Assembly: GCA_045837725.1 (NCBI GenBank)
Contig: JBEWZL010000300.1
Location: forward strand, 310,001-374,000
DNA length: 64,000 nucleotides
From: Vermamoeba vermiformis
Lineage: Eukaryota
Reading direction: 5' to 3'
In this document: piece by piece, positions 1,456-45,895 of the stretch
Position numbering within the stretch: position 1 is the stretch's first letter
How the letters are laid out: each line of letters starts with the position of its first letter
The notes under the pieces: model-generated
Told to the model about the DNA's origin: nothing
The model's input: only the letters and a program-made list of their open reading frames with translations
The model's database searches: none
Made by a program: the position numbers and the translations under genes

Positions 1456-2856
1456 TTACGATCTCCAGTCGGAGATTGCTCCAAAATAAGTAGCCGCTAA
1501 TATATCCGCGCGTATCGTGTGCTCAGGCAGTCCGAATTGATGCACCTGTCCCTCATCGAAGATGAGCACGTGATTGCGACCCGCAGCAACTCTGAGGTTA
1601 TTTTTAGAGACGCGTGCACGTGATTCATAGATGCAGTACGGTGTCACGTGCACTACTTGTTCTTGAGGGGTCACGTGACACCAGCCAGCAACAAACACGC
1701 GATGACAGCCTGTAATTGACACGCGTCAAATGTTGGCACAGATTTTCAGTGCACGTGACTTACGTGTGACAAAAATAGAACTCCACAGCGCACCAATCAC
1801 GTGGTCTATCTCCACGGAGATTGTTGTGTCGTCATCGAGCTGAAAGTTCTCTACCAGGGCAGGCACGTGCTCAGACCCTGCTCGACCGAGCTGTTTGTAC
1901 CTAGCACCGATTAGTGCGCGCGCGCTGGTTCGTCACGTACCCATTCCAGCCCATGCTGTGCGCATTGCCTAATTCTGCAAATGACAGGTGTCAAACAGGC
2001 GCATAGAGTGACAGGCACGTGACTTACGATCCACCAGCAGCGAGTGATGTGCCCCTGCAGCCACACTGCGCATCGGAGGTATCTCCGCGAGCAGCTGCGG
2101 AGTGCGCACTACGTCACCGAGCACGTGATTGTCTAAATTAGGAAATGAACTGCCCAATTGACCGTACTGCGTGGCACCACAGCCGTACACCCTGCCCTCA
2201 CCTGCTGGTGTTAATTGACGCGTGTCACACAGAAGTCGACACTTACGATCCAAAAAGAGTGAGTGACAGTCCCCTGCAGCGCACTGAATGACACCTGTCA
2301 AACTGAGACGAGTCACGTGACTCGTGTCTACATTGCCAGTGCCGCATTGACCCGCGTGATTGCGTCCAGCAGTGTACACCTCGCCTGTATCTGCAAAGGA
2401 TTCAGTGAACGTGTGACACGTGTCAAACACGTACCCGTGAGAAAGATCACGTGACTCCAACCCGCGCTGACTTGTGTCACGTGCGGAGTGAATGGCACGC
2501 GACTGAGGACCCTCCACTCGTCAGTCACGTGCAGCGCTTTGCTGACTAAACAAGGAAATAATCAGCCTCTTCCGAACATCCACGTGATTCACGTACCGTA
2601 CGAATTGTTGCCTAAAAAGTACAGCTGATCTGATATCTCGTTAATATGAATTGGGACTAGTAGGCCAGTTTGACGCCACGAACCTCGTGTATTATGCTGC
2701 ATATGTATCTATCTATATATATAATTACCGCTACGTACTGTCGCTAGTCACTGCAAGTAAATAATTGAACCCGCACCGCACCACGCTGACTTGGAGACCA
2801 CTCAGATCCAGCTTCTGAAACACGTACTCGAGGCCTGTGTAGCCCCAATGCGTCAT
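1456..2856 (-). CDS. RCC1/BLIP-II repeat beta-propeller protein (multi-exon)
   Basis: Repeated RCC1 motifs: VRCGFNYLLAV..QLYFLGNNSYG, VSAGWSHVIFL, VYTAGRNHAGQCG, CAAGDCHSLFL, VYGCGATQYGQLG, VAAGAHHSLLV, VAAGRNHVLI. First exon ATG at 2856 (MTHWGYTG), stop at 1456. Confidence 0.85.
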
Positions 2857-3023
2857 AATTACTGCCCCTTCTATTGTCGCGCACTAATCACGCGTAATTG
2901 TAAAGTTGATGTTTGGTCAATGCGCAGTCCGATCTGAAAAAAAAAATCACGTGCTTGCGTGGCTGAGTCAGCGCTGGTGCTCGAGCAGTGCAATTACACT
3001 TACAACAGAGGTACACTACAACG

Positions 3024-3131
3024 ATGATCACTGATACGCAGCTCGCTACATTCGTCAATCTGGTCGGTGTCTCGATCTTTCTCCTGATTGTTGGCTATCA
3101 CTACGTTGTGGCTTACAAGCGCGAAAAATAA
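3024..3131 (+). CDS. OST4: Oligosaccharyltransferase subunit 4 (35 aa, below ORF-track cutoff)
   Basis: ATG 3024 to TAA 3131 encodes [35 protein letters not shown], matching the OST4 pattern MITDxQL...G...L.V.YHYV. Confidence 0.93.
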
Positions 3132-6417: not shown

Positions 6418-9400
6418 TTACAATAGTTTCTTCAACTCGTCTGCAACACTGGATTTTGGTATTGTTTGTGTTGGTGTAAGAGTGGAGAGAAGTGAAAGAT
6501 CAAATGAAGTACTTAAGGGTGGTGCTTCAGGACTCGCCACTCGAGCAGGGTTTGCAGCTGGAGGTGAAGGAATTACGCTGGTTAGTGTTGGATCGAGTCG
6601 CGGATCCCGTTGTTGCGCCACAAAAGACATTACAGGCAATGTGCTCGTAGTCACTGCATTCATAGCGAGTGGTACTTGCGAGGGCAATGAAGTGACAGGT
6701 GTCACATTTGGCTCGTTTGTGCTGAAAGGACCTTGATACGACGCAACACTCGAATTGACAGGTGTCAAGTTGGCACTGACAGCTTCGACATGCTTGACAC
6801 GTGACTTGTGGCTGGGAGGTGTGACGAGACGCTGTGCTTCAACCACCGCCGCGTCGTGTGAAAATCGACAGCGATCCCCGTACAAACACGCTCCCTGCAC
6901 CATGTGTTTGCATGCCTCGCGCGAGAGATCTAAAGTGACACGTGTCAGTGCTGTCAAGCAGTCATTACGTGCACCACTTACCGTGCGAATAGATGCACTC
7001 GTCACCGCGTCTGCACACCCCTGAGCGATAGAAGCGACACACCTCCTCGAGCTTGTGGCCAGCAGGGTGCAGATACGGACACTCTTGGCCCTTGCTGCAG
7101 CTCTTCTTGCTCGCAAAGTACTTGCACACCTCGCGCTCGCTGCTCGCTTTCTTCTTGCTCTTCTTCTTGCGCTTGCGTTTCTTGCGCGCAGTGCCAGTGT
7201 CACGTGTCGCTGACTGCACGCCCTCGGAGTCTGGCCCCGGTGGGCCATTCACATCGCCTTCACTCGAAATTTCACCTTCCTCATCGTCAGAGTCCTCACT
7301 CTCACTCGATGACTTGACACCTGTCAACGGTAATTCTTCTTCGGAGTCACTCCCGAGTGCCACAACGTCAGACTCAATCTCGTGACCGACTGGATTGACA
7401 GGTGTCACGTGATTGACAGGTGCAGGGTGCGGTACCGTTGCATCGAGCTCAGTCGTGGTCTGTGCGGAGGTGTTACTAGACTGTTCAGTGAATGCGCGCT
7501 GTGCTGCACTACCTGACTCGGACTGGCCCGTGCGCGGTCCTGCCGGCCCATTCACTGAATTAGACCCTGGTCCTCCGTTCACTGAACCAAGTCCCGTGGG
7601 TGGCTGGGGTCCAGGATGACTAAATTTAGCACGTTTGGTGTCCGGGCCCTGGTAGAGATCATCACGTGCGCGCTTGTAGCCCTGGTCCTGTCCGCCGCGC
7701 CCCCCGCGATATCCCCCGCGCCCTCTGTGGTACGAGCCCCGCGCGGTGTTGTAGGGCTCGGGCGGGGGCGGATAGGCGGGCGGGGGATTCGGATAGGCGT
7801 TGAGTCTGGGATCACGTGCGGGGTTCGTGAGCGCACTCTGCTGCAGCGCATTGAGCACCGCGTGTTGTTGCAGCGACTGCAGCAGTGCGAGGGGCGTGGT
7901 GTTGAGCGCGGCCCCCTGATTCAGCTGCATCAACAGCGCGGGGTTGAGGGACAGCAGTTGCAGCAGTTGTTGCTGTTGCTGCACGGGCCCTGGTGGATTG
8001 AAGCCCACGAGAGGTGCGGGCATGACTGGCCCTGGTTGAGGCTGATATCCACCACTCGCGCCTGGATTGGTGGCCATTGGTGGATTCGTGGGATATCCTC
8101 CACGTGGATTCTGCGCAGGGAAAGCACGTGATTGTTGTTGCGGAGCAGCGAACTTCTGTTTCACTGAACTGAGCCACGTGGCATCATCTGCAGAGAGTTA
8201 ACGCGTCACCAACATGATAAGACTACGCACCGAGTACTTGCGGGAATCTGAGAATTGTAACGGCAGTCTCGCGCGCTAACAGATCCATCTGCGCGAGTTC
8301 TTTGTAGTGCAAGTGCAGGGCTGGATCTGGCGCGGCTTTGTTCTGCACCTTGTTCTGCAACACAGCGCGTCAGTTCACTGTACCAACACTACAACTGCAC
8401 TACGCACCTTGTAATCAATGATGAGCAGCTTGATGTGCTGCACGAGCTGTTGATCATCGAGCAGCGTCATGTCGCGCATCATGGCCACCAGTGACTCGAG
8501 CACTGGCGCTGAGAACTCGCTGCACACGCGCCACAGCTGTTGATCGTCGCGCGCGATAGGCCGCACCGTCTGATCGATCTGCCGCACATCGAGCTTGAAT
8601 GTTTTCTGCGGGAGTGTTCGTGAGTTCATTCATGACGGCTCAAACAACTAGTTACCTCCACCACGGGCTCAGGTTCACGCACTGAGCGACGCATGTCCTC
8701 ATCGATGTGCTCGGGGGCCTTGATGCTGATCTTGCTGCTGAATGCACTCACCGCCACGAGGCCAGTGCGCGCAGTGAGGGCGCGAAACAGCGGATTGACA
8801 GCGCGCGCAATCAACTTGCACCAGGGCCGCAAGTAGAGTGCCAAAGTGAGGCCAGAGGTGTGCTTGAACGAGGTGCCCAACTTGCCCTTGATCCAGTCGC
8901 GTGTCTCGCCGTACTGTGTCGGATGGGCGAGGGAGAGGTGCACCAGTCCATGCACGGCACTCTCCACCAGCATGGTGTGCTCGTGCTTCACTGCCTCGAG
9001 CAGCAGATGGCGCGTCAACTTGTAGTCCTGACACTCCGCTGCGAACAGTGCTGACAACTTGCCACTCATCCACACCACTCCGCACTTGCTCAGCCAGGGC
9101 TCGCGCGGATCTGCCAGCACGCGCTCAAACACTTGCGCTACAGGTGTCCACCAAGCACTGGGTGCAGCGCGTACCAACAGCGCGAGTGCTTTGACAGCGC
9201 AGAGGTGCACCAAGTGCCAATCTGACTCGTAGCGCGTGTGTTCTGGGGTGCGCGGTGCAGTGCGCAGGAGATTGGTGCAGATCTCGAAACAGCGCTGCTC
9301 GAGTCCTTCATCGCGCGGCACATCTAGCAGCAGTGAGTCAATATGATCGGTACACTGCTCTCGTACTCACTCTCTAAGGCCACCACTGCATGGCCCAGGG

Positions 9401-11188: not shown

Positions 11189-11190
11189 AG

Positions 11191-16367: not shown

Positions 16368-17423
16368 TTAATTAGTAAAGCGCTGGAAGATGGGCAATCG
16401 ACCAACAGAAGCGCGCTTTGAGGGCGAGTCCTCGGGTGAAGTGGATGCAATGCTGAGGGCACCAAAAGCGGAGTCGAGGGGCACTTCAGAGGAGACAGGA
16501 CTCGGCACTAAGAGTGGTGCAGACCAGATAGAGTGCGTGGGCTGAGGAGTGGGGATCATCTGAGGAGGACTGATGACAGGGCTGGGCACTGAGTGTTCGA
16601 CAACAGCGCTGGACACTGGGATGTGCTCGGACTCCACGGGGTACTGCGCTTGAGGGGCTTGCGACTGTTGGGCCAAAGAGTTGGCGCGCAGAGAGGGGTT
16701 GTGAATGAAGCGACAACGAGTACCATAAGGACAAGTGCCTTGTGTGTGGAAGGTTTTGCAGATCTCAGTTTTGTACTTGGGATGACGCATGATAGTGCGA
16801 AGCTCGTCCTTGCCGTGCGCAAACTGACACTTGTTACCATATCTGCATGCACCAGTTTCGGTCCAAGAGCGGCAGAGTTCAGTTTTGTAAAGAGATTGCT
16901 GGGTAAGTTCATCTTCAATTTCATTCTTTTTCTTTGGGTCCAATTGATTAATTAAGACAGGCTCTTCAGGAGGAGTATTCTTTTTAGGGCTTTTGGTGCT
17001 GGGACCCCAAGGATTGGGTGCGGATTTGACGTTCACGAATTCAGGCTGGGATCCAGGTCGGGGTTGTTGCTGAGGGGTCGGGGCAATTGTGGGAACCTCG
17101 ATCTTCTTCATTGCTGTCATAGGAGCAGGTACCACATAGTCCCATGAAGATTGATTCGAGACCGGAACAAAATAGTATTGTTGCTGATTCGACATCCCCG
17201 AAGATTCTACAGAGCTCATCGGAGTCTTCTGCTGCACTATTTTAGGCTTGGATTGCATAGGGGCTTCTGTTACTGGTGTCCACGAATTTGAGTAGCCATT
17301 AGCATTGGCAGATGGTGCTGTTTGAGGCCAGCCGCTCTGTTTCGAGACTACATTCCATTGCCATTGCGAGTTCAATGGGGTGTTCCATTCATTATTGATT
17401 GGTTGGTGTGTTGTTGACCACAT
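16368..17423 (-). CDS. ZFP36: Tristetraprolin-family tandem CCCH zinc-finger mRNA decay factor (intronless)
   Basis: [27 protein letters not shown] and [26 protein letters not shown] with canonical spacing. The C-terminal RLPIFQRF matches the TTP CNOT1-binding motif. Confidence 0.93.
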
Positions 17424-17800
17424 CGGTTCCGAGATTTACAATATTAAACAATAGGGGGTAAATTATGAATACAGTAATTATGAAAATACACAGTAATAAA
17501 AAAAAATGTACACAAAGCTGGTAACACAATCTACCACGAGAACAAAGCAAGTAGTGGTCGTGTCTTTAAGAGAGTTATTAGAAAGATTGTATTTTTTTGC
17601 TTTCGGGTTTTGGGTCAAATTTTTTCTGCGGCCGCGCGAACAATCACAGAAATTCCATCAGAATCTGAGAGCCAGGCAAGTTTTGATTTACTTGTAAGGC
17701 CCTTGAGTTGAAGGTTACCTACCTAGCCCTTCTTTTGGTTGGGTGATTGCGTCGGATCTTTTTCTCGCGTTTCTATTTTTGCATTTGTTTTCTCGGCACA

Positions 17801-20477
<2,677 letters not shown>

Positions 20478-20567
20478 TTGCCATATTTGTACATAGCACT
20501 GTAAATAACACGCCCTTGGTAAATACATCGCAACTTTAAACTACATGGACTATATAACACAAATGAA

Positions 20568-21461
<894 letters not shown>

Positions 21462-21855
21462 TGTGCTAAAAATACAACAATTATTCACCAGTAATTATAA
21501 TTGTGACAATAATATTACTTGAAGTAATAACTGCCAGTATTAATGTGGCTAGTATTATTTAAAAATAGAGGGCTTTTTTGGCTTTTTCCAACACAATTCA
21601 TTATTCAGATCTGATCGTTCTCGAGAAATGCATTAATTAATAATATTACCTTGAGCTTTAATTTAATACTAATGTGTGCTACTAGTTCGACGACTTTTCT
21701 TTGTTCTGTGAAATATTGTTCATTCAATTTGGTTTGAAAGTTTTTTATTTGCGCAAAATACAGCACGAGGCATGTGTTCAGTCACGTGCTCTGTCACGTG
21801 ATCGATCAGTGCACTCGAACATTGCCCAGTGCCATAATGACAGAACTGCACCACG

Positions 21856-22376: not shown

Positions 22377-23618
22377 TTAAATGCTGAACACGACTATTGT
22401 GAGCACTATCAGCACGATGATCAGTGCGATGATGATGCACATCTGACCGTTGTCTGGTACAACAATTCGTTAGTCGCGTTCACTGAACGGCTAGTGCCAC
22501 CATGTCCATATATGGTGCACCAGACCATGTGTGTGGCACCAGGCCACTACGTACCCTTCGCGCGCTTGATGAGATCGTTGACCTGTTTAGTGGCCCCCTG
22601 CAGTCTGCCGTGCGTGTCCGTCACTTCGGTGTCGAACTGTTCCAACGCGTGCAACTGACCGCGCAGCTCGCTGTTGATCTCGCGACCTACCTCACCGAGC
22701 TGCACCACCGTGTCGCCCAGCTGACCGAGGTCTTGATCTTGCCGCGCGTAGATCTGATCCTGGTGCTGCGCCTCGTTGTCGATAAAGTCCTGGTTGTCGC
22801 GCCGCAGTTCGTCTTCGAGGCGTTTGTAGCGCGAGTTCTGACGCGTGGGATTGACCAGGGCCTGCAGATGACACGTGTCAAACAGAGGTCAGTAAAGAGT
22901 GACACGTACATTGCGCTGATCCATTTGAATGCGCATCTTGGTCTCCAAGCTCGTCAGGTCCTCTTTGAGTGCACTCACTGTGCGGCGTGTCGTGTCAATG
23001 TAGCGCTTGCGGCTCTCAATCTCACTGCGCTCCACGAGACCCTTGCGCTCTACAATACGTGTGAGGAGTTAAGGGACAGGGGTGTATATAATAGTGGCTG
23101 TATAATAGTGCGTGAAAGGATATCTAACGTCTCTTCCAGATCTGCGAGCTCTTCGTCCACCCTGCGGCGTCAGTCAGTAGCAGCACGTGTATATATGTGT
23201 ATATGTGTGAGTGCAGCAGAGTACGCACCCGTCAATGTTCTGCAGGATCTGGTCGTTGAGGTACTTGAACTCGGGATTGTTGGCGGTGTTGCCGCTGTTC
23301 AGAATGGTCTTCCACTTGTCGTACAGACTGTTGATGCCTGACAGCGAGGACTCGATGGAGCTGCGCAGTGATTGGTCAGTGATCATGACCGTGTGCGTGC
23401 AGTGCGCAGGTGTATGGTCGCGAATTATCCGATTTTTATTGTAATAAATAAATACGAAAAAAATAAAATAAGACTGCGCAGCTAGGAATATGCAATAATA
23501 GCGCACATATGAATGTTATTTATCATAAAAATATTAATTTAATATTGCGTGGGGTATTTATGTTGTAACCGACTTACTCTTTAATTACAAAGAACGGATC
23601 TCGTTTTTTATTGTCCAT
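22377..23618 (-). CDS. STX6: Syntaxin-6/Tlg1-type Qc SNARE (multi-exon)
   Basis: N-terminal DPFFVIKE and SLYDKWKTIL..EFKYL segments, a SNARE motif region (EQDQDLGQLG...) and a C-terminal TM segment CIIIALIIVLIVLTIVVFSI*. Confidence 0.85.
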
Positions 23619-24659: not shown

Positions 24660-27600
24660 ATGGGCAAGACTCGCTTTTCATCGTTGGATGTGACCATCGC
24701 AGTGCGGGACCTGCGTGCAAAAGCGCTCGGACTGCGCGTGGCCAATGTGTACGACATTAATGCGCGCACTTACCTCATCAAGCTCGCGCGACCAGTACGT
24801 ATATATAGTGCTGCTGATGCTGTTTGGAATTTTAATTTCTTGGTTGGATCGCGAATTGGAAATTAAATTCAGAAATTCAAATTTGTGGCTAATACCACTC
24901 CCATAAATGCCTATAATTACAGAGGCACCATACGATGCTAACAGCACGGATCAGGATCAAAAAGTGTTTCTCATGCTGGAGAGTGGAGTGCGCTTTCACT
25001 CGACCAAGTTCTCGCGCGACAAGAACGACGTGCCCTCCGTGTTCTGCATGAAGGTACGTGCACCTCTATATATACACTAAGGACGCGTACTTAGCGTGCT
25101 GGCAGTTGCGCAAGCACATCCGCACGAAGCGACTGGAAGAGGTGCGTCAGCTGGGCATGGACCGCGTGGTGGTGTTCACATTCGGTGCGGGCAATGTGCA
25201 GTGCCACTTGATCATGGAGCTCTACGCTGCGGTGAGTACTGCGCCGTGCTGCTGTCACAGGGTGCTGACTGAGTACTGCAGGGCAATCTGATTCTCACCG
25301 ACGAGAACTACAAGATTCTGACCCTGCTGCGCACGTACAAGTCCGAGGACGACAACGTGAACATCTCGGTCGGGCAGATCTATCCCGTGCAGCAGAGCAA
25401 GGCCCTCGAAGCAGTGAGTGTGCAGCGCGTGCAAGAGATGTGTCGCAGCGGTGCGGACAAGAGCATCAAAGAGAACTTGAACAAGACCTTCTGTAAGTGT
25501 CACTCTCGTCTAGTGTTATTATTGACACCTGTCACACAGTGTTCGGCACGGAGATGATCGATCACTGTCTGTTGAGTGCGGGCATCAGTCCCAAGCAGCA
25601 CGTGACTGAGAACGGTAAGTGGCCATTCAGTGAACGCGCACAGTGACTGATCATGACACGTGTCAATGAGCAGACAGCGCGACGATTGAACGACTGGTGA
25701 GTGCGCTGAGTGCAGCACGTGACTTTGTGGTGAGTGGCACAGTGACACCAGGCTACATCACGTACAAAGATCTGAGTGCCAAGAAAGAGAAGAGCAGTGC
25801 CAGTGCGAACAAGAAGAAGGGCAAAAAGAACAAGAACAACAACAATAATAATAACAACAATAATAATAACAATAATAATAATAACAATGTGAATGAGGGC
25901 GAGGAGAAGGACACTGCTAATAATAGCAACACCAATGCTACCAACAACACTGCGAGTGACGCGACACAGCCCAGCGAGGGTGCCTCAGTGACAGGTGTCA
26001 ATGTAAACACTCCGAGCGAAGTCACTGCCCCGAGTGAGACCCTTGATCTGTAAGTCACTGTTTGACACGTGTCATCGCCTCACTTCTAACGCCGACAACT
26101 AGCTACGACATGTTCTTGCCATATTTGTACAAGCAGTGCGAGACAGCCAAGCGCAGTGAGTTCGCAGACTTTGACGCGGCAGTGGACGAATTCTTCTCCA
26201 AGATTGAGGCGCAGAAAGAGGCCGTGGAGCAGAAGGAGAAGGAGCACAATGTGACCAAGAAGTTGGACAAGGTCAAAGAGGACCAAGAGCGCCGCATCAA
26301 AGCCCTGGCCAATCAGGAGGAAGACAACACACTGAGCGCACAGCTGATTGAAGCCAATGCCCCGCTGGTGGACCACTTGATTCAGACCCTCAACAGCTTG
26401 ATTGCCGCGCAGATGAGCTGGCAGCAGATCAAAGATGTGGTCAAGCAAGAGAAGAAGAAGGGCGACCCTGTTGCCTCGGCCATTCACGAGCTCAAGCTGC
26501 AGACCAATCAAGTCACCGTGCTGCTCTATCAGAACCTCGAGACCGACGACGAGGACGAGCACTCGATGCCCGCCAAGAAGATTGACATTGATCTCTCGCT
26601 CGGTGCCCTGGCCAATGCCACCGAGTACTACAAGAAGAAGAAGAAAGCCACTGAAAAGAAGCAGAAGACGCTCAATGTCGCTGAGACGGTGATGAAAGCT
26701 GCCGAGAAGAAGGTGCGCAAACAGCTGCAAGAGGTGCGCACGCAGTCCACGATCAACAAGATACGCAAGCCCTACTGGTTTGAGAAGTTCAATTGGTGCA
26801 TCAGCTCTGACGGCTACATCATCGTCAGTGGTCGCGACATGCAGCAGAACGAGGTAACGCTGTCTATATTATATGCGCGCCTATGAGTGCCGCACTGACC
26901 AGTCGCAGATGTTGTACAAGCGCTACATGCAGCAGAATGACATCTACGTGCACGCAGATCTCAGCGGTGCCAGCACGTGCATCATCAAGAACCCGACTGC
27001 TGATCGTAAGTGCACTGTGCTGCGGTGTTGTGCAATCACGTGATCACTGACCAATCACATCACAGCGGTGCCCCCGCGCACACTGAACGAAGCAGGCAGC
27101 CTGTCAGTGTGTTACAGCAAGGCCTGGAACTCCAAGATTGTGACCTCTGCCTACTGGGTCAAGTCCAATCAGGTCTCCAAGACTGCACCCTCGGGCGAGT
27201 ACCTCACCACGGGCAGTTTCATGATCCGCGGCACCAAGAACTACTTGCCGCCCTCCAACTTGCAGATGGGTCTCGCACTCTTGTTCCGCGTGGCTGACGA
27301 GTCGATTGTGAATCACATCAACGAGCGCAAGCCCAAGCTGTTGAGTCAGGAGGAAGAGGACCGCGAGGCCATTGAGCGCGACAAGCTGCAGAAGCGCATG
27401 GAGGACAAGCACGAGTCACAGAACAGTGCTGCACCGAGCAGTGAGGGACAGAGCAGTGCAGTCACATCTGCTGACAGTGCCGCGCAAGAGAAAGAGGACG
27501 AGAGTGGCGAAGAGGTCGTGGACGACACGCTGTCGAATGACGATGGCACGGAGATACTGCATCAGAACGAAGACGCGAACAACACGAATGAGAGGGAGGA

Positions 27601-28701: not shown

Positions 28702-28787
28702 ATCTGTTGCGCACATGTAATAAATAATCCTCATTAACACTAGTCTCGCTCTAAGTGAATATTTAATTCAGTTTGAATGTCATCGGC

Positions 28788-30550
28788 TTATTTCGCGTGA
28801 CTGCTCAAAGGGTACTCATTGCCCCACTTGGCCAAGTGTTCTTCGAGCTGTTGTTTCTGTTCTTTGAGTGGCCAAGTCAGTTCGTCGTACACATCGGTCC
28901 ACAACTCGGACACGGCAGGCTTCACTTGACTTTCTGCCTTCTTCAAGGCCTCCAACACGGCTGTGCGGCTGCGAGCCCACGTCTCTTTCTCGCGAGTCTC
29001 GTCCCAGAGTCCCTTGCTCTCGAGGTACTTGCGCAGACGAGTCATGGGCGAGTTGGACTTCTTGACCTCATCGACCTCAGTGTTGGCACGATATCTCGAC
29101 GCGTCATCTGATGTCGAGTGGTGACCGACACGGTATGTCATGGCTTCAATTAACACGGGCTTGGACTGCAAATGACACGTGTCAAATCAAGTGTCAAACA
29201 CACACTCACACGTACCTCTTTCAACGCATATTCACGAGCGCGCTTAGTGGCGTTGTAGACAGCAAACAAGTCATTGCCATCGACGCGAATGGTTCTGATG
29301 CCGTAACTGATGCCGCGTGCTGCAATGCCGTCACCGCGGTACTGTTCGCGCACTGGTGTGCTGATTGCCCAGCGATTGTTGCGGCAGAAGAAGATGGTCG
29401 GGGTCTCCAATGTCGCGGCAAAGTTGAGTGCGGGGTGGAAGTCACCTGGGCGCGGTTAGTGCTGTGCAAATAGGCCGCTAAAGACGTACCTTCACTCGCA
29501 GCGCCGTCACCGAAGTAGACCACTGTGCAGTTCTTCAGGCCAGCGAGTTTCTGCGCATAAGCTGAGCCCGTCGCTTGCGGTATTTGCGTGCCGAGTGGCG
29601 AGGAAATGGTCTGAAAGTTGAGTGCGCGCGAACCATAGTGGACTGGCATCTGACGACCCTTGCCCAGATCGTGCTGGTTCGAGGTGCATTGGTTCATGAA
29701 ATCATCTAAAGTGAAGCCGCGGTACATGAGCACACCTGCTTCGCGATACTATAAATAGAAACCGAGAATTAGTCTTCGCAATTCTTTTTTGAGATCTGGC
29801 GTACTTGGCCGAAGATAATGTCGTCTTTGTGAATAGCAGCAGCACTGCCAAAGTGCGTGGCCTCTTCACCGTAGTTGGTCATGTAAAAACTAATGCGACC
29901 GTGGCGTTGTACGTCGTACAAGAACTGATCCATTTGGTTTAATTGGATCATCATTTCGTAAATCTTAACGAGCTCTTCATTTGACAACTAAATAATATAG
30001 TATTACTAATCTAGTATTACAAGGCTTAATGAGTCACAGATCCAATCAACACAATTTCAAACAGTTGAATAATGGCTGTAATAGCTGTAATATACGTACG
30101 TCTTGAGGCATCTCTTTCTGGTTCAATATTTTGCCATCATAGTCCATCACTTGATAGGTGGGGATAGGTGTCATTTTGTATGGATCTGCCCAGCACTTCT
30201 CAATTTCTGTGCGGTGCTCTGAATTTTCTTCAATAGTTCCATCGGATACGAATCGAACCAATTTTTTATTTGATGTCTATATTAATGTTAATACAAATAT
30301 TAAGGGCTATTTATTGCTTATTAATTATTTAATTTCGCATCAAACTCAATGCTATCTATTAACGCTTAAATCGCCAAGTACTTACGCCCAAAATATTGTT
30401 ATTAATTAACATGTTGGTACTTTTGTTATTCAAGCTTGTCTTCTTGCCGATCGTTGCTGTGTGAAGAGGCGCAGATGCGATCAGAGCGCGTTGAGGACCA
30501 CGAGCCCTCACTACACGACGAGCAACTGTTCGACACACGTTACTAAGCAT
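28788..30550 (-). CDS. BCKDHA: Branched-chain 2-oxo acid dehydrogenase E1 alpha subunit, mitochondrial (multi-exon)
   Basis: [67 protein letters not shown], and an Arg-rich presequence [12 protein letters not shown]. Confidence 0.96.
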
Positions 30551-30994
30551 GGTGTATTTATCGCGAATAAATAACAAAAACAACTCAGTCAAATTTCTCC
30601 AACAAGATATTCTGCGATTGGATTCGCCCGCAACTCAGCGTGGAGCAATCGTAAGAGGCACTTATGTAGCCGTCAATGTATGAGCGCATAAGAGACGTTA
30701 GGGATCTGAGATCTTTCGCAATGCAAAGGTGTCAATAAGCCGAAAGTTCCTTAGCAAAGTCCAACGAACTGTTTCAGACGGCAGCTCGACTGTTGCTGAA
30801 TGCAGTACAGGTTTTTCACAACACAGCCAAATGCAGGGAATGTTCCAGGTAGTGCTAGAATGTTCCAAAGAACGTTCTGCTGCCGTTCTGCCCTTGTGTA
30901 CGGAAAAATCACGTGCCCGTGAAAAATTTAACTATAAATATCTAAAAAGTAACTTTAATTTCATTCACCGAGGCTAACAACAAACACACTGAAT

Positions 30995-31480
30995 ATGCAC
31001 AGCACAGTTTTCTTCGCACTCATCTTCGCCGCAGTGGTGACAGCCCAGCCAGGCATCAGCGTGACCGTGTACAACGACGAGAACTGTCGCAGTGGCGGCA
31101 CAGCACAACTGACGTACTACTTGACCGATGACTGGCAGCAGTGTCAAGCACTCCCTGCTGCGAGTGGTCAGTTCTTGGTCGGTCATGCGCGCTGTGAGGA
31201 CAATCAGCTCATCGTCGAGTACTGCGGCAACAAGTCCTGCAGTGCCGCCACGTGCTTTGGTCCCAGCACGACTGTCGCAAGTTCAGGCTGCAGCTCCAAC
31301 TTGTTTTTGACCACCGGATCCGTTAAAGTCCAGTGCCCCGACAACACGCACCTAAAGTGGATTGATCAACGACCTTACATCGTCGCATGGGTCGGTGCTG
31401 GATTCTTCTTATTGACAACTATTATCTTCTTAGTGTTGTTCTGTAAGGCTCGAGACTCCAATCACCACGTCCGCGTTTAA
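30995..31480 (+). CDS. Small Cys-rich type I membrane protein, unknown family (intronless)
   Basis: Signal peptide MHSTVFFALIFAAVVTA, eight Cys in the ectodomain, TM segment YIVAWVGAGFFLLTTIIFLVLFC and a short tail. TATA-like TATAAATA lies about 60 nt upstream. Confidence 0.75.
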   Translation: MHSTVFFALIFAAVVTAQPGISVTVYNDENCRSGGTAQLTYYLTDDWQQCQALPAASGQFLVGHARCEDNQLIVEYCGNKSCSAATCFGPSTTVASSGCSSNLFLTTGSVKVQCPDNTHLKWIDQRPYIVAWVGAGFFLLTTIIFLVLFCKARDSNHHVRV

Positions 31481-31579
31481 TACAGTTAAACAACTCATTG
31501 TAAATAGCAAAATAAATCAATTATTTAAAATAGCAGCGGTTAAAGTTAATTTGAACATTTAATTCGCAGAGTTATCAAC

Positions 31580-33767
31580 TCACTCTTCCGAGCCATCGTC
31601 AATGTCAAATATAGACAACAGACCAATGGACGGCGTGCCAAGGTGTACTTGATGCAATATGCCGTTCTGCTTCGTCTTGATATAGTACAAAAATAAGACT
31701 AACGCGTGGAACAGATTGTTGCGACCCTGCAGATCCAAGTAATTAATGCTGCGAGACTAGAGCAGATATTATTAAGGAGACTTACTTTGAGTATGGGCCA
31801 CGTCTCCTTCTCCACAATTAAGTTGAAGTGCGGAGGGTGCAAATGAGGCTGATAAATAATCACGTGACTGTTCACCTTTGCAGGGTTTTGCGGCCAAATG
31901 ACGTAGTGTCGTGTGGTGAAGCTGTTTCTGGCGTGTTGTGGATCAGCGGGCAACAAAATGTCATCCATGCGCGTGCAGAACAAGTGAATCAAGATCTGCG
32001 TGTCCGTGGGCAGTTCTTGCGTCCACTTGGTGTTATTCTCGGCCTCGCCCGCGTCCCATTTGAACGCTGAAATGAAATTTCCCGCCGCGAGTTCTGCGCA
32101 GCGATTAGTACTCGAGTGATGTCACGTGACTGCACTTACTTTTGATGCGCTTGACGAGATATTCGCGCGAAGTTGAGCCCACGACATTCAAGTAGCGCTC
32201 GAGTTGCAGTCGCTCGCGTGACGCTTGTTCTTGTTGCGAGCCAGGCGCGTAGATCTGAATCGGCGTGGTGGTCCAGACACCTGTAGAACTCGAGGACTGC
32301 ACTTGAATGATTTGACCTGTGTTCGTCAACTGCTGCTCCCACAATGGTACGCTGAACGGGATAAATTAGCGCAAAGACCAGTTAGTGACACGTGTCATTG
32401 ACGCACCCAGTCTCGACTTCAATCTTGGTGATTTGAGCCACGAGAGGCTGCAATACTTTTTGTGACAACCACTGCGCAGTGTTAGTGCATTATATATATA
32501 AATTAACTGCATCATGCACGTACCAATCGCATGCGCTCGGTCCACACATTGATGAGCGGATCCACTTTGAGTTTGCCGTAGAGTTCACGTGCTGCAAGAG
32601 TTGTGAAATAATCAAAGTCACCGCCCTCGCGCTTGTTCGGGTTGAGTGGCGGAGGTCTGCAAATGACACGTGTCAACAATAGGACTTGAAACAGTCAAAC
32701 ACGTACCTGTAGCCAGTCTGATAAGTCTGCAGCGGAATGTTGCTCACATTGTCAGAGCCAGTGCCAGTGAGACTGCCGAACTGACTGCTCTGTTTGTTCG
32801 AGGACAGCACACTGCTCATTTGTTCGCGCTCTTCTTCGCGCTTCATGAATTCATCTAACTCGCTCGTGTCACGAATCAAATACTGGCGCAGCGCTGCAAC
32901 AGTCGCGAGTGTCAGTTCAAAGTGTCAAACAGCAATTGATCCGCACTTACGTGAATAGATTTTGCGACGTGTCACTGATGTCAGTTGCGGTGTTCGTTTG
33001 CGGTCATCCTAATTAGGAAAGTGTCAAAAATAAGTCCGTCAGTGCGTCACGTGACTTACAGAGGCCGAGAGAGGCAGCACAGGAGGGCGCAGCGTGATGG
33101 GTGTTGAGTGCGCGGGCTTGGCTTGTGGTGTGTGCACGACTGATGGCGCGTGACTGGCCCGCACTGGTGTCACTGCACACGTGTCAGACAGTGGGTATCA
33201 ACAACTACTACACGACTACGTACTCGTCTGTTCGATCTCCTCTGACACAGGGGCCATGCCGAGCAGTTCGCGCTGTTTGTTGGAGAGATTGACGGAGGGT
33301 GGCACGGAGAAGTAGCGATTGAACGAGACGAGTGCCATCACGAGCAGCGTGACTGCGGCGATGTTGCCTAGGCAGCAATTAGACTATGAAATGGTATTAA
33401 TACAGTGACAGTACGCACCTAAGATGTGAATGGCACTATCTACGCGTGGAGCACCGCCTAAAATATGAACGACCGTGGATCTGAGTACAAACATTAGTCT
33501 TTGAATTTTTAATTGTGACTAAAATTCAATTATGGCACTATTATAACTATTTATAGTAAAATCAAGCGTGTGTAAAATATTTGAAAGCAGCGGCATTAAT
33601 TAGTAAAATCAGATCTCGCTTCTTTACCTGTAACTGGCAGTATTGGCGAATCCAAATATTAAGAAAAAGAACCACAAGCTCATTATACCAAAAAATAACA
33701 TTTTAAGAGTGCCATATTCTTGTAGACCAGAAACTTTCCGTATTTCTGGATTCTCCCACCGTTGCAT
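31580..33767 (-). CDS. TMEM209: Nuclear pore membrane protein TMEM209-like (multi-exon; start approximate)
   Basis: N-terminal TM segments, ELDEFMKREEE, EYLVKRIK, PPHFNLIV and the C-terminal GRNNLFHALVLFLYYIKTKQNGILHQVHLGTPSIGLLSIFD, matching the TMEM209 C-terminus. Confidence 0.82.
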
Positions 33768-33940
33768 ATCTGTGGCTTGAAGCGATTATATTACAATTAA
33801 ATAAGTCTAATTAATTAAGAATCATTCGTGTTGCTTCGTACGGGAGTGACAGATAAACTATTTGAAAAAAAGGCGGCATTTAACTTGCACGGCCTGACGT
33901 AGCACCAGACGTTAATAACTGTCCTTAAATTAGCACTATA

Positions 33941-35566
33941 ATGATGAATATAGTAAAGCAAATTCCACGTATCACGACTCTCACGAGCAGGAGGGCAGTG
34001 GCAACGTCACGGAAGTCGATCTACTTTATTAACAAACAGTTTTATGTACGTTACAGCAATATCATTAATAATTTGTTGATGATATGTGGCTATAATTATC
34101 GAACACCGGAATGATATTTTAAATTAGACCACGACACGTACCGGTCCTCTCGCGCACATTAAAGTGCTCGATCTGTCGCGCGTACTGGCTGGGCCTTGGG
34201 CAGCACAATTACTCGCCGATTTGGGCGCTGAAGTCATCAAAGTCGAACAGCCAGAGCGCGGTGACGATACACGTGCGTGGGGTCCACCCTTCATGTCGGG
34301 CAGAGACGGCCCCACGCGCGAGAGTGCGTACTATTTGTGCGCCAATCGCGGCAAGCAGTCCATCACAGTGGACTACCGCACCACACAGGGCCAAGAGATT
34401 GTGCATGCACTGGCCAAGGAGTGTCACGTGCTCATTGAGAACTTCAAGGTCGGTGCACTTGCCAAATATAGACTAGATTACGAGAGCATTCACCGCATCA
34501 ATCCCGGTATGATTAGTGCCTCGTGTGACACGCGACTAATGTGCAGCAGATCTGGTGTACTGTTCAATCACGGGATATGGTCAGACAGGTCAGTACTGCT
34601 ATAGAACTGCGTGTGACACTCGAATTGACACGTTTGACAGGTCCTCGCAGTGAAGAGCCAGGCTATGACTTGCTCGTTCAAGGCATGGCTGGACTCATGT
34701 CATTCACTGGCGAGCCGCAAGGACCACCTGTCAAAGTGGGTGTCGCTGTCGTGGACTGTTTGACAGGTACGTGCTGCGCTGTGATTGGCTGCCTATTCAT
34801 GAATGACAGGGCTGTTCTCGACGATTGGAATTCTGTCTTCAATCATTGCCAAAAAAGGACAGCACGTTGATGTCGCGCTGTTTGATTCAGCGGTATGATC
34901 TCTAGTATAATACTACGCGGTCATAACTAAGTGCTATATTTAGATTGCTGCTCTGGTCAACCAGGGTGCTAATTATTTGATTGGCGGGAAAATTCCAGCG
35001 AGACTCGGCAACTCACACCCCAACATCGTGCCGTACGGTACATTCGACGCACAAGACGGTCACGTGATCATCGCTGTGGGCAATGACTTGCAGTTCGCAC
35101 AGCTGTGTCAGGTACGGGACTCAGTTTGACACGTGTCAGTTAACACGCGTGGCAGGTGTTGCAACGTCCTGATTTGGCCACAGACGAGAGATATTCGCGC
35201 AATCCAGCACGTGTCAAACACCGCGCAGAACTCGTAGCGCTGATCAATTCCATCACGTGCTCGCGACCGAAGCGCGAATGGATTGACAAGTTGACAGCTG
35301 TCGGTGTGCCCGCTGCACCTGTCAACAATTTGCAAGAAGTATTCAGTGAACCACAGGCACAAGCACGTGGCATGCAAATCAACATGGAACACCCGCTATC
35401 AGACGAAGGTGTTTCCTTAATAGGCAATCCCATTAAATTGTCGCAAACACCAGTCGATTATCAGCTGCCACCACCGCTGCTCGGCCAACACACCGAACAG
35501 ATTTTAAAACGACTCGGTTACAGCGCTGAAGACATTGCCAAAATGCGTCAAGATCACGTGATTTGA
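33941..35566 (+). CDS. Family III (CaiB/BaiF) CoA-transferase, SUGCT-like, with mitochondrial presequence (multi-exon)
   Basis: [86 protein letters not shown]. The first exon is rich in R/S/T. Confidence 0.92.
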
Positions 35567-35603
35567 TCTCGCTGTCGTTGTACATGTGCTTGTAAAGACT
35601 GGT

Positions 35604-36844
35604 TTATTTCTTGTCCTTGCTCTCGGTGCTCGTCAGTTTGTCCAGCACACTCTTCACCACGCCACTCAGGTCACTGCGCGCATAGAGCTGTTCGAGTTGA
35701 CGGCGCGCATTGGCTGCGAGGTCTGTGTGGGGCTTGGTCGGCGCGGACTTTTGCGCGAGTTCTTTGAGAGTCTGAGAGGTGTCAGCAATCTAATTTGACA
35801 CTTGACACGTGTCATTCACGTACCAGCAACAGGCCGTACAATGCGCGCACATTGTTGTCGTGCGACAGTTCGAGGGCGTAGCTGTAGTACTTCTTGGCCA
35901 GCTCTAAATTGTCCGCACCACCGATAGTGTACAAGAGCTGCAGCGACATTAATAAGCGACACTATCATATATTGGGGCAGTTGTATTTACCTCGGCGTAG
36001 CGCACATAAATGTGATAGTTGTTGGGACTGGCCAATATCAATTCTTCATAGCAATAGGCTGCATTTTCATAACTGGTAGCATTGAATTAATATACATCTA
36101 CTATATTACGTTGTGCGTACAGTTGCAGCGAGCAATACAGATCAGCTAGTTCTTGCCAGGCCTCTACATCCGCCATGTAAACATTCAAATACTTGTTCAG
36201 CAGTGTAATGGCGCGTTCTGGCTTGTCATTCGCTTTTTCAATGGCAATCAATCGCTTTAATGATATCTATAAAGATTGGCGAGTTAATTTACATTTTTCT
36301 TCATTATTATTAGAGGTGTACCTGATCTGTTGGGTCTTTCTCTAATATATCTTTGTAAGTGTCTTCAGCCTTCGCATATGATCCCTTAGCCTCTAATCTC
36401 ATGGCTGACAGGCGCTGTACTCGCACACTAGTCGGGAATTTTCTGTACAAAGCAGCAAAGCATTCCTGTGGGGTCAGATCGAGTCAACTTTTGTCATCCT
36501 CGCATTGAAAATCTAATATTATATACCTCTGCTGTAATATCATCGCCGTGCGCTAATGCAGCAATTAAAACTTGTTCGTACGTGTCCCAAACTGTGGTAA
36601 TTTGATTAATAATTATTTAAAATAATCAACCTATCAGTCATTGTAATAACTGAGGTCATGATTACTTACTATCATCTCCCAGTGTAGATTTGTATTTGAT
36701 AATTTTTTTGCCATATTTTAAGACAAGTTCAGATTCGCGCACTTGTTGATCGCGAACAAAGGAAAGAAACTCATTGATTAATGATATATTGGAAGGACTT
36801 TGTTCTAGTCTAGATTTGTATTGTGATAATTCTTGAACACTCAT
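35604..36844 (-). CDS. EMC2: ER membrane protein complex subunit 2 (TPR protein, multi-exon)
   Basis: WDTYEQVLIAAL, KFPTSVRVQRLSAMRLEA, KRLIAI, LNKYLNVYMADVEAWQELADLY, AAYCYEELIL..P, NVRALYGL. Confidence 0.92.
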
Positions 36845-37128
36845 GCTGGGTAACGTTGCAGAACTTCGGAAAAAAGAATTTTATTTTCAGCTGAACGCAA
36901 CAAGAGCGCTGTTGCTCGACTGTAGTTAGCACACAATGTAGTAATCAAATGAAGCAATTGGCATAGATAGACGAAGGCTACGTGGGCCAACCGAAGGGAA
37001 CCAGAAAATTTAATCTGCTTTTTGTCAATTCTTTCAGAAAGAATTCAAAAAAGTCAATTCTTGGTCAGCGGAGGAGGCATAAAATCGATGCAATTATTTT
37101 TTAAACCAATTATATCAATTTCCTGAGA

Positions 37129-42806: not shown

Positions 42807-42904
42807 TATTGAACAGTCTTGATAGCTCTTATGTATATAGTACCCTCCCTTTGTAAAATAAAATGCTAATGTGAATTCAATCGAGCACTTTATAGTCAAC
42901 AGTT

Positions 42905-45895
42905 CTAGCGCATCGAGGCCTCAATATTGCCACCGTCCACTGTCAGTGTGGCTGCAGAGGTGGCAGGAGACAGAGCTAAGGCTAAGAATGCACGTGCCAC
43001 ATCCTATTAGATAACATTTAGTATATTTGTGTCAGGTGATTGTGCCCCATACCTCCGCAGTGACCTCGTGTTTGAGCAAATTGTTCGCAAAGTATTGTTC
43101 TGGCGTCAGACCGCGAGACTGGGCACGCTTCTCGACAACTTCCGCGCTGAAGAATGAAGTTCGGACGCGATCGGCATTGACAGCGTTGGATCGGATCTGA
43201 TGCACGCCATATTCAAGTGCGTACTGTTTCATCAGTGCTAGTGTCGCTGCTTTGGCTACAGCATAAGGACCAAAATTAGGACCAGGATTGACTGAGGCCT
43301 TGCTGGTGTTGAACAAGAGACAGCCGCCCATCAGAGGGACGCCAGGGCACGTGATCTGATTCTGTTTCATGAACACACGCACTGCACCCGCTGCCACGAA
43401 TTGATGCGCGAAGAAGTTGAGCTCAAAACTTTGTCTGAGCAGCGCTGTCGAATCACCGATTGGGCCTTGATACGGGGCACCAGCATTCGAGATGGCAATG
43501 TCGAGGCTAGTGATTGACACGTGTCAAATACCACTTGTTAAAAATCACCGCTACTTACCCGCCAAATTCAGTGGTGCAATCAATGAAGGACTGATTGACC
43601 TGCTCCTCTGAAGTGACGTCAATGACACGTGTCACGACTGAGACACCCAGCTTGAGACTGGCGATGGTGCCTGTCACCTCTTTCAAGTTGTCAGCGTTGA
43701 TGTCTGTCAAGAACAGATTGGAGCCTGACTTGGCGAATTCCTACGAAAGAGTAAGCCCCAAAGAGGTTAGAGAGTGAAGTACGCACAATAGCAATCGCGC
43801 GACCGATGCCTGAACCAGCGCCTGTCACGTAAGTCACACGTCCTTCGAGCACCTTTTCCGTCGACTTTCCTAATTTGGCTTGTTCTAAGCTCCCTAATTA
43901 AAGCTTAGTCCAACAGTCTCGTGCACTAATAATACTCACAATATTCCATGTCCCAAATGTCCTCTTCCGAGGCAGGCTCATATTTGCCAACTGTTTCAGC
44001 TTGTTGGAAGATTGTGATCGAGTGTTGATAAATGTCCTGAATACGTGTTAGTAATTACTAGTGTTAACATTAATAGCGCAAGGTACCTTAGCGATCTTGT
44101 TAGCTCCCATTTGTCTGGCTGCGTACACAATGCCGATGCCACGAAGAATCAACTGCAACATATGAGTGTTATTCAATCGCTGCCATTATAAAGTACTTAC
44201 AACGCGCGGCAATGGATCGAGTTCAGTTTTCTTGTCTTGAGATCTGGCACGAGTTAGATCAGCGATTCAATGTTTTTCGGTGCTTACTTGTCGTTGTAAC
44301 ACTTGAAGTAGTGATGATAGTGCTCAATGTAGCTGGTCAACTCCTTCTCTAAGTACTCCTTCAAGCCATGTTCAGGCCAATCGAGCAACAACATGGGCAG
44401 TCTCTAACATATTGTGTAAACACAAGTACGTTCAAAATCATCATTAAGGAACACTAACCTTCGTTCTGATCACGTGATCAGGGGTGCAAGGACCGCATTG
44501 AGACCAATGTGCAACTTGATGTGAGTTGGAGAATGCCTTGCTGACAGCGCTAGCGTCGAGATGGAACACCCAGCGCTTGTTGGATTGTTTGTAGAATAGG
44601 CCGCGCAATAGCTAGACGTGAATTAACGATATTGTTAATACAGTGCAGTGACTTACAGGAGCAATGTCGTGATAAGCAGGCACAAATGGAGGAGTGACAG
44701 GTGTCAAAGATGTCAGTGCTTGCTTGTTGATATAATCCACAGCACTGCAGCCAGTTAGTTATGGAGTTGTTGGTGTGACAATCACACTGCTACTTACTTT
44801 TGAACAGCTTCAATGTGCAGGTCGTAGCTTTCTTTTGCAGTTTCAGCGAATGTAAAAATGCCGTGTCGAAGGAGAATGAGACCTGTCAGCAAGGTCAGTG
44901 CTGTAACGACGAGCCATCGTGAGTGAAAGTACCGTGAATGTTCGGGTTCGCGAGATACACTTCATAAGCCTTCTTTGCCAATTTAAAGCCGGGCATAATC
45001 TGTTTTGTGGTTAGTATATGTACCAAGGGATATATGCTAAAGAAAGTGGTCCCTTACATAGGGCACAATGCCAAACTTGTCGCCGAACACTTTGCGACTC
45101 AACTCTTCACTAGGCTGATCTACCAGGGCTAGTACAGCATCAGCGTGCGAATGATCGATGAACTGTGTGTTGTCAGCAATGTTAACTTTACAGGCTGTAG
45201 TGTACCTTGTGAGGCAAAAACGCGTGCAGCAGTGTCTCGACAGATCTGCAGCACAATGTTAGTGTTCATCACTGAGCTGAGCTTCAGAATTACATACGGG
45301 TTAGGCGAGTTCGCATCCGTAATATGACTACGCAGTTCATTGACCATGTCCTCATCAGACAAACTGTCTAATTGTCTGTGCAACACGTTAGATCGCGTAT
45401 TGGATGCTATTCAGACGTACCTGAGCTTGCGACAATGTTCAAGGTCGACACAAGGGAATCCTTGGGGCTCTGTGGATAATAATTAGCGGTGTTTGACAAT
45501 AGTGTATCAGAGGCAACGAACCGATATTGGACAGATCCCATCCACTTCCTTTCACGGCAATAACTTCGACTTGTTCTTTGACTTTATTCGTCACTTTAAT
45601 TTTTACTGAAGTATTTCCACCTCCGTGCAGCACCAAGCTTTGATGAAGTAAAGATATTAATTTTTGAAATATTTTCAATTAAATGTCAAATACTTAGCGC
45701 CTTTAGAGGACGCCCATAAGGTTAACGTACACTCATTTGTACTATAAAAATGCTTTTGGCTTTATTTGGTCATACGTACCTTGGATCTTGACCAATAAGG
45801 CGTGAAGTGTATACACGAAGAGCCAAGTCCTCGCCCCAAACAGGAGCGTATTTGGTAATGTAAATTTGTGCTTCTGCGTCGCTCCACTTGTTCAT
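42905..45895 (-). CDS. Bifunctional class II aldolase / short-chain dehydrogenase (rhamnulose-1-phosphate aldolase/SDR, YuxG/RhaEW-type), intron-rich
   Basis: LRVYTSRLIGQDP.LVLHGGGNTSVK, VKGSGWDL, SVETLLH, DHTHADA, RHGIFTF, GPCTPDHVIRTK, DMEYW.LEQAKLG. SDR part: VTGAGSGIG, NAG, PGPNFGPYAVAKAA, NAVNAD, VDGGNIEASMR*. Confidence 0.9.

Follow-up and report, generated by a model that had tools for sequence, protein, structure and literature searches.

The DNA studied here, called the window throughout, is a 64-kb stretch of Vermamoeba vermiformis contig JBEWZL010000300.1 (positions 310,001 to 374,000), and the element in question is a palindromic 12-mer, TGACASGTGTCA (i.e., TGACA(C/G)GTGTCA), that recurs in its genes. 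The window carries genes on both strands, for which Pfam agrees with the labels given in an initial annotation of the sequence (Rxt3, CCCH, CytochromB561_N or TMEM209-like, CoA-transferase III, NBR1, and TTP-like CCCH). All results refer to this single window, and the genome-wide spread of the word lies beyond it.

Enrichment and form of the 12-mer

A pattern search of the window returned 37 strand-wise matches that correspond to 23 distinct sites between 1982 and 44706, a density of about 1 per 2.8 kb (Table 1). The initial annotation had spoken of more than 20 copies and of a number far beyond chance, and both statements hold: dinucleotide shuffles yield 0.04 copies, and Markov simulations of orders 3, 4, 5, and 6 yield means of 0.04, 0.12, 0.48, and 1.81 with maxima of 1, 2, 3, and 6 (100 runs each). 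Fourteen sites have the form TGACACGTGTCA with CG at the center, and nine have the asymmetric form TGACAGGTGTCA/TGACACCTGTCA with GG or CC; TCACGTGA is found at 15 sites with 1.48 expected. The excess of CACGTG cores that had been pointed out earlier was recovered as well, with 178 copies counted on both strands compared with 79 under an order-3 model; no hexamer is more over-represented. Bare CACGTG occurs 44 times in predicted exons compared with 13.5 under synonymous-codon shuffles, and some CACGTG-core variants in the Rxt3 exon stem from a repeated H-V-T-L coding pattern. Palindromes as a class are not in excess, neither the 6-mers (p = 0.29) nor, under an order-4 model, the 8-mers (p = 0.54).

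The surroundings of the copies are unrelated. Across all 253 site pairs, the 30-nt flanks on each side have a mean identity of 0.401 (random: 0.388) and a maximum of 0.536 (random: 0.554), with no pair above 0.6, which rules out an origin of the copies as pieces of a single transposon family. Such fragments, like a loss of the enrichment under Markov or codon-preserving null models, had been named beforehand as a possible refutation; the flanks are no more alike than random ones, and the enrichment persists under both kinds of null model (for codons, see below).

When any central pair is allowed, TGACA-N2-TGTCA occurs 24 times (centers CG 14, GG 6, CC 3, and TC 1). Counted per site of the 12-mer, the central pair is CG in 14, GG/CC in 9, and GC in none, which fits the 14.7, 7.4, and 0.9 that we calculate for two half-sites TGACA(C>G) varying independently, with G in about 20% of them. 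Other spacings of the inverted half-sites (N0, N1, and N3 to N6) and the everted orientation give 0 to 1 copies each, and direct repeats give 0 to 5 per spacing (5 at N4). The word is also sharply bounded: of the 30 variants that differ from the CG form at one non-central position, only 3 are present, once each, whereas central-position variants are present 6 and 3 times, and CpG-decay (CpG-to-TpG) forms are absent from the window. The independence of the half-sites is what would be expected if double-stranded DNA were read by a dyad-symmetric protein with its weakest contacts at the center. On the sense strand, the asymmetric form reads CC at 6 sites and GG at 2 by site assignment (the ninth site, 2289, is left out), i.e., there is no clear bias. 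Additional TGACA/TGTCA half-sites within 30 nt of the sites number 12 compared with 4.2 expected (p = 0.0015).

A different palindrome, CAGATCTG, is present at 12 sites in the window (e.g., 20821, 20974, 23137, and 34547), including 7 copies in predicted exons compared with 0.47 under codon shuffles; some of its copies straddle a 3′ splice site (CAG/ATCTG).

Gene models and placement of the copies

Introns and exons were taken from home-made, RNA-trained ab initio models that form an incomplete catalogue. Splice-site weights and a codon table were trained on RNA-supported introns, followed by a dynamic-programming parse of each strand, and the parse used (intron penalty 17) recovers 10 of 14 RNA-verified GT..AG introns. 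Introns were kept if their flanking exons scored higher on their own than on the opposite strand, which resulted in a catalogue of 101 introns. Two earlier parses were dropped because of over-prediction (170 to 573 introns), and a brute-force search for the best intron at each site was too noisy for use alone. An Rfam search of the window gave no match, and a protein atlas search with one unexplained open reading frame gave no lead (scores of at most 0.84).

RNA was mapped over 17001-37000 from two raw runs and two sets of transcript contigs, with 15 joints listed. The transcript contigs skip 20708-20768 and 22862-22909, two minus-strand GT..AG introns that both contain the 12-mer, and contig pieces that start at 26103 or end at 29165 do so at the exact predicted 3′ ends of two more motif introns. 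Since the piece that begins at 26103 lies at record position 216, the exon upstream, with site 25989, would also be part of the transcript. RNA runs with the same species label are 95-99% alike to the window, cover 17001-37000 thinly, and add direct reads for one intron only, 28355-28413, which lacks the motif. Water metagenomes and runs labelled as several other organisms contain transcript contigs with at least 99% identity to 17001-37000. Four reads of run X23, from a strain 95-99% alike, join the two ends of 20192-20715 with six other letters in between; the right edge of this joint is the base before motif copy 20716, and it may reflect a strain difference or a chimera. A 65-nt stretch at 23059-23123 (-) that is skipped by RNA contigs of two runs opens with ATATCCTTT, carries TCCCTTAAC shortly before its end, and closes with AC, which we take to be the signature of a U12-type AT-AC intron; the organism would then have a minor spliceosome.

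Within the catalogue, 13 sites fall into introns (6,642 nt), 6 into exons (32,537 nt), and 4 elsewhere (24,821 nt), corresponding to 1.96, 0.18, and 0.16 copies per kb. The four sites elsewhere comprise 1982 and 2414 in intron-like stretches, 44695 in an exon of the parse, and 2289 without assignment, which gives a final assignment of 15 intronic copies, 7 exonic copies, and 1 (2289) without context. The earlier emphasis on coding DNA is thus borne out by the 7 exonic copies but had overlooked the short introns that hold two thirds of all copies. Similarly, the patchiness described in the initial annotation is real, but the copies cluster at a scale of 10 kb and not by gene: The word is found in 11 of 32 catalogued introns at 19-36 kb and in 0 of 31 at 45-64 kb (Fisher p = 0.00035), a region without a copy of the 12-mer anywhere. 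The region rich in copies, at 19-36 kb, takes in about 9 genes, which lie on both strands. G+C is lower in the introns at 45-64 kb (0.36 vs 0.46), and intron by intron, G+C is not a significant predictor of the word (p = 0.39).

Copies in introns and the branch site

All 15 motif introns are of the GT..AG type, 44-61 nt long, and unrelated in sequence outside the 12-mer. In 10 of them, the copy stops 5-8 nt short of the 3′ splice site (binomial p = 2e-5, assuming about 24 possible places per intron), and 9 of these 10 copies form YTGAC together with the preceding pyrimidine, with the putative branch A 14-17 nt from the 3′ end; for 4 of the 9, this is the sole YTRAY located 9-40 nt from the 3′ end. 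The YTGAC of the 12-mer probably serves as splicing branch site in these tiny introns, judging from sequence and position. In the remaining 5 introns, the copy begins between +10 and +16, just past the region of the 5′ splice site, and 4 of these 5 have a separate YTRAY nearer to the 3′ end. Altogether, 9 of the 15 intronic copies provide a YTRAY with its A about 10-40 nt upstream of the 3′ splice site, as expected of a branch site; confinement to introns and reading on the sense strand, which would also be expected of a branch signal, are not seen, with 7 copies in exons and a word that is the same on both strands.

Most introns lack the word: 82 of the 97 examined are without it and use CTAAC, CTAAT, CTGAC, and similar sequences. 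Among 52 TGAC at branch distance, 22 extend to TGACAC and 14 to the whole word, so that branch-site needs do not account for the right half. In minimum-energy folds, a GUACGUG 5′ end pairs with the motif in 6 of the 15 motif introns, and motif introns are not significantly enriched in RNA structure overall (mean z −0.39 vs 0.06, p = 0.075).

Copies in exons and conservation of the encoded peptides

The 7 exonic copies all lie in the same frame, xTG-ACA-SST-GTC-Axx. One of the other two frames begins with the stop TGA, and the remaining one would require TGT, a codon that is avoided. In 300 synonymous-codon shuffles of 33,150 nt of predicted in-frame exon, the mean is 0.11-0.13 and the maximum 2, compared with 8 counted matches that represent the 7 real sites (43623 is counted on both strands); the initial claim that the word invades coding DNA is therefore well founded. 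Peptide 5-mers of the type [LMV]T[RGP]V[IMTNKSR] in predicted exons are encoded by the exact word in 7 of 7 cases (one of these being site 43623 read on the opposite strand), which means that the DNA word explains the peptide and not the reverse.

For one copy, the mode of origin can be read from the protein. The VTRVI encoded at 43623 aligns without gaps to solved short-chain dehydrogenases (SDRs) that carry VHTFV, VLTTV, or AHAYV at this place, and the copy has therefore arisen by substitution; a 12-bp insertion is ruled out by the same alignment. Both exonic sites that were tested are conserved at protein level in relatives: VTRVI is kept in relative P0009 (exon 88% identical), and the VTGVN encoded at 25989 is kept in relative P0010 within a disordered stretch that is only 44% identical, where it is the sole such 5-mer among 1,139 residues. 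The same NFACT/RQC protein (25676-26047, +) contains a stretch of some 18 asparagines, which its 44%-identical relative P0010 lacks. The parse of 43053-47121 (-) gives one long gene that joins an N-terminus without family assignment to an alpha/beta hydrolase, a middle part resembling an aldolase, and a short-chain dehydrogenase; Pfam confirms only the hydrolase and dehydrogenase parts, and neighboring genes may have been merged.

Table 1. The 23 sites of the 12-mer in the window and their contexts; exon and intron coordinates are from our own models, and codons are given for exonic copies.
Element	Position	Strand	Context
12-mer, sense form TGACACCTGTCA	1982..1993	-	intron-like stretch 1975-2027(-), GTAAGT..TTTGCAG; uncatalogued, coding flanks unclear; motif ends 7 nt from intron 3′ end; TTGAC, putative branch A at 16 nt, sole YTRAY
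12-mer, GG/CC form	2289..2300	.	neither intron nor exon reading convincing
12-mer	2414..2425	-	intron-like stretch 2391-2434(-), motif start +10; clear GTACGT..TTTGCAG type
exonic 12-mer, GTG-ACA-CCT-GTC-ACT	6693..6704	-	CCCH gene, predicted last exon or 3′ region; own parse only
exonic 12-mer, TTG-ACA-CCT-GTC-AAT	6756..6767	-	CCCH gene, same predicted exon as 6693
12-mer	6936..6947	-	CCCH gene, intron 6930-6981(-); ends 6 nt from 3′ end; CTGAC, putative branch A at 15 nt
exonic 12-mer, TTG-ACA-GGT-GTC-AAG = LTGVK	7315..7326	-	410-aa open frame with CCCH fingers
exonic 12-mer, GTG-ACA-CCT-GTC-AAT = VTPVN	7396..7407	-	410-aa CCCH open frame; may alternatively be read as a 46-nt GTACCG..CAG intron
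12-mer	19717..19728	+	intron 19684-19735(+); ends 7 nt from 3′ end; sole YTRAY
12-mer	20716..20727	-	intron 20708-20768(-), skipped by RNA contigs of runs X4 and X9; motif ends 8 nt from 3′ end; sole YTRAY
12-mer	22869..22880	-	intron 22862-22909(-), skipped by RNA contigs of runs X4 and X9; intron 5′ end GTACGTGTCA complementary to its 12-mer
12-mer, sense CC form	25523..25534	+	NFACT/RQC gene, intron 25493-25539(+); ends 5 nt from 3′ end; sole YTRAY
12-mer	25654..25665	+	intron 25615-25673(+); A precedes motif, CTGAT just upstream
exonic 12-mer, GTG-ACA-GGT-GTC-AAT = VTGVN	25989..26000	+	NFACT/RQC protein, disordered part
12-mer	26063..26074	+	intron 26050-26102(+), at +14; separate CTAAC branch site downstream; RNA contig shows edge 26103
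12-mer	29173..29184	-	E1 dehydrogenase gene, intron 29166-29215(-); RNA contig piece ends 29165
12-mer	32386..32397	-	intron 32352-32406(-), at +10, CTAAC directly after; gene with CytochromB561_N domain
12-mer	32664..32675	-	intron 32657-32706(-)
12-mer	35127..35138	+	CoA-transferase III gene, 44-nt intron 35112-35155(+), at +16
12-mer	35803..35814	-	intron 35772-35823(-), at +10; extra half-sites adjoin
12-mer	43515..43526	-	intron 43507-43558(-)
exonic 12-mer, GTG-ACA-CGT-GTC-ATT = VTRVI	43623..43634	-	beta strand of short-chain dehydrogenase domain
exonic 12-mer, TTG-ACA-CCT-GTC-ACT = LTPVT	44695..44706	-	predicted exon 44657-44744(-)

The word in metagenomes

The lineage is poorly sampled, since no NBR1 homologue in the protein collection exceeds 76% identity and the second-best has 35%. 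A metagenome scan for two copies of the word 50-80 nt apart returned 119 loci, but blastn aligns none of them to the window. Tblastx gave a single match, L099, which was rejected as an unrelated AKT-like kinase gene with a satellite in its 3′ region, and most of the 119 loci are either tandem satellites or members of a bacterial promoter family. The satellites (L045, L081, L059, L088, L065/L085/L006, L102/L067, and L099) have a period of about 17-47 nt with the 12-mer in the repeat unit and come from unrelated metagenome organisms. The promoter family (L018, L048, L077, L093, L022, L047, L046, L026, L060, L016, L001, L007, L109, L041, and L078) consists of G+C-rich contigs that are 75-100% alike, in which two 12-mers about 52 nt apart bracket a TTGACA..TAGACT-like promoter; these look like conserved paired operators of a bacterial repressor and are unrelated to the window. 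In a handful of eukaryote-like contigs (L017, L027, L063, L080, and L097, the latter identical to L005 and L032), the word lies inside GT..AG introns and solo TGACAC half-sites are found at branch positions.

Comparison with known systems

Trichomonas and Giardia have the intron motif ACTAACACACAG, and extended branch-site or 3′ intron motifs at fixed positions are said to have been described for some protists by Irimia and Roy in 2008. The window word resembles these by a branch-like YTRAC(AC) at a near-fixed, short distance from the 3′ splice site but differs in that it occupies only 15 of 97 introns, is a perfect palindrome with a right half that has no known role in splicing, and also occurs in exons. 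Like introners, it is a recurrent sequence common to many short introns, but the shared part is only 12 bp long, the flanks are unrelated, and the exonic copies are substitutions. The DNA uptake sequences of Neisseria and Haemophilus are non-palindromic and act via DNA uptake by competent bacteria. They share with the window word that 10-12 nt are imposed on coding DNA in tolerated frames and conserved across related genomes, and we know of no uptake route of this kind for the window organism.

A close parallel to the word is HIP1 (GCGATCGC), which together with alternate iterated palindromes of cyanobacteria is treated in Elhai 2015 (PMC4390886). Both are short exact palindromes far above composition models and present in coding DNA beyond codon usage, and both show non-random one-letter deviations. 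The window word differs in lying in eukaryotic nuclear DNA, in its length (12 bp vs 8), and in having its deviations at the center, where those of HIP1 are at the ends. It is further set apart by its roughly 11-fold concentration in spliceosomal introns, often as a putative branch site, and by the lack of copies in evident intergenic DNA.

The proposed likeness to a dimer site of TALE homeodomain proteins stands for the GG form TGACAGGTGTCA, which is letter for letter the MEIS3 consensus from HT-SELEX in a table of PMC5449588. Nine of the 23 sites are identical to it, with two inverted TGACA half-sites two bases apart, but the commoner form (TGACACGTGTCA, 14 of 23) has C at position 6 and the sites are found in gene bodies, not promoters.

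In the literature, a search of main texts without supplements gave no report of the word. The exact 12-mer returned two Ebola virus papers on matters other than this motif, the 10-mer core combined with "intron" returned only unrelated papers, the GG form returned only the MEIS3 table (PMC5449588), and "highly iterated palindrome HIP1" combined with eukaryotes returned only cyanobacteria, going by titles and abstract openings. A HIP-like word in a eukaryotic nucleus that is coupled to intron architecture therefore looks new and looks like an undescribed counterpart of the bacterial iterated palindromes.

Discussion

We tentatively favor the reading that the word is recognized on double-stranded DNA by a symmetric protein, maintained by selection, and placed where it costs least, an account that in our judgment falls just short of an even call. 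The word would be composed of two abutting inverted half-sites TGACA(C>G), and its reader would be a two-fold symmetric, dimeric protein with a specificity like that for the dimer site of TALE homeodomains. Selection would keep the word inside transcription units, where it would persist wherever the harm to genes is smallest: In introns of 44-61 nt, it would double as branch site or fill the only free space behind the 5′ splice site, and in exons it would be limited to the only frame free of stops and rare codons, thereby dictating the peptide (L/V)-T-(R/G/P)-V-x. The role of the reader could be chromatin organization, self-marking of DNA, or control of transcription or recombination. Several features suggest reading at the level of DNA: The word is dyad-symmetric with half-sites that vary independently, it is sharply defined, the SDR copy arose in situ and has bent the protein sequence, the encoded peptides are conserved, the copies extend regionally over both strands, and the asymmetric form shows no clear strand bias. 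As for the complete picture, i.e., a HIP-like 12-bp dyad with a dimeric reader that rewrites residues of conserved domains, has been co-opted as branch site, and is conserved between species, we regard it as possible and would sooner doubt than assert it.

Several observations weigh against a reader of DNA. No such protein has been identified, the main form of the word has C where MEIS-type sites have G, and the bases beside the 12-mer follow the T-richness of the sense strand rather than dyad symmetry. Copies are about 11 times denser in introns than in exons, and 0 of 23 lie in evident intergenic DNA (about 8 kb, a rough estimate from parsed gene spans), which counts against such a reader because a DNA site should be least constrained there. 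The fixed distance of 10 of the 15 intronic copies from the 3′ splice site in turn points to a role at the level of RNA. Finally, the sample is 64 kb in size and the gene models are our own: The filtered catalogue holds only 7 of the 14 RNA-verified GT..AG introns, and RNA support is visible for at least 4 of the 12 sites in 17001-37000 among the joints listed.

The main rival explanation is an RNA-level splicing element, which we consider unlikely though worth serious attention. Branch sites are recognized by pairing with a conserved sequence of the U2 small nuclear RNA, and the left half (Y)UGACAC would be an extended branch site for this pairing, while the right half would pair with the region of the 5′ splice site (GUACGUGU) or with another copy and in this way join the intron ends or mask the branch; the copies in exons would then act as decoys or as enhancers of splicing. 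Such an element would accommodate the preponderance of intronic copies (15 of 23, at 1.96 vs 0.18 per kb in exons) and the empty intergenic DNA, the 10 of 15 copies that end 5-8 nt from the 3′ splice site (9 of them with YTGAC, 4 of these as sole YTRAY), the pairing of GUACGUG in 6 of 15 folds, and the extension of 22 of 52 TGAC at branch distance to TGACAC. It is harder to reconcile with exact dyad symmetry and independently varying half-sites, which are unexpected for a single-stranded signal. The 12-nt palindrome can fold on itself with at most 4 bp. Moreover, 5 of the 15 intronic copies are off the branch position (4 of them with their own YTRAY nearer to the 3′ end), 7 copies are exonic, 82 of 97 introns splice without the word, motif introns are not significantly more structured (p = 0.075), and clustering across genes on both strands would be hard to explain. 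A functionless molecular drive, in which biased repair or gene conversion turns near-matches into the exact word with branch-site TGACAC as main seeds, appears improbable to us. It would readily produce the near absence of non-central one-mismatch neighbors without CpG decay, the regional clustering, and the substitution in situ that has bent the SDR protein (homologues carry F, T, Y, or A at the place of its beta-strand R), and for HIP1 a methylation-linked mismatch-repair model is proposed in Elhai 2015 (PMC4390886). Yet a drive should fill unconstrained intergenic DNA, where no copy is seen, and copy number shows no significant link to intron G+C (p = 0.39). It would also call for a methyltransferase or nuclease, of which none is known, and the persistence of the exonic peptides in relatives fits selection at least as well.

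Two further explanations, a transposon origin and an artifact of composition, are effectively excluded. Introners with inverted repeats exist elsewhere, and relics of a miniature transposon or introner that created these introns might explain why a few introns (22862, 1975, 25493, 29166, and 32657) have more in common than the 12-mer, namely GTGTCACTCT near the 5′ end and CTGTTTGACAC..TCATTTGCAG at the 3′ end, as well as the extra half-sites within 30 nt (12 vs 4.2, p = 0.0015). This origin is very unlikely, as it is largely refuted by the unrelated flanks (0.401 vs 0.388, with 0 of 253 pairs above 0.6); in addition, target-site duplications were not seen on inspection (which is not a statistical test) of the 13 catalogued motif introns, and exonic copies exist, one of which, in the SDR domain, is demonstrably no insertion. 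The chance that base composition, codon usage, or motifs repeated in proteins account for the excess is negligible. CAC and GTG are favored codons, and H-V-T-L repeats do yield some CACGTG in Rxt3, but neither Markov models of orders 3 to 6 nor codon shuffles ever reach the observed counts, which refutes this explanation for the 12-mer and, in view of 44 vs 13.5 copies in codon shuffles, partly for bare CACGTG. Among single ideas, a DNA-level reader or a repair bias is still the strongest.

In bacteria, iterated palindromes such as HIP1 have long been a puzzle, and a nuclear case would free the phenomenon from restriction-modification or DNA uptake of prokaryotes. The window word has two built-in read-outs, splicing and protein sequence, and would demonstrate that exons can have a DNA word forced on them despite the preference of the protein, and that such a word can be recruited as a splice signal. 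If reading by a dimeric protein is true, the word would belong to a gene-body marking or organizing system of nuclear DNA that has not previously been described.

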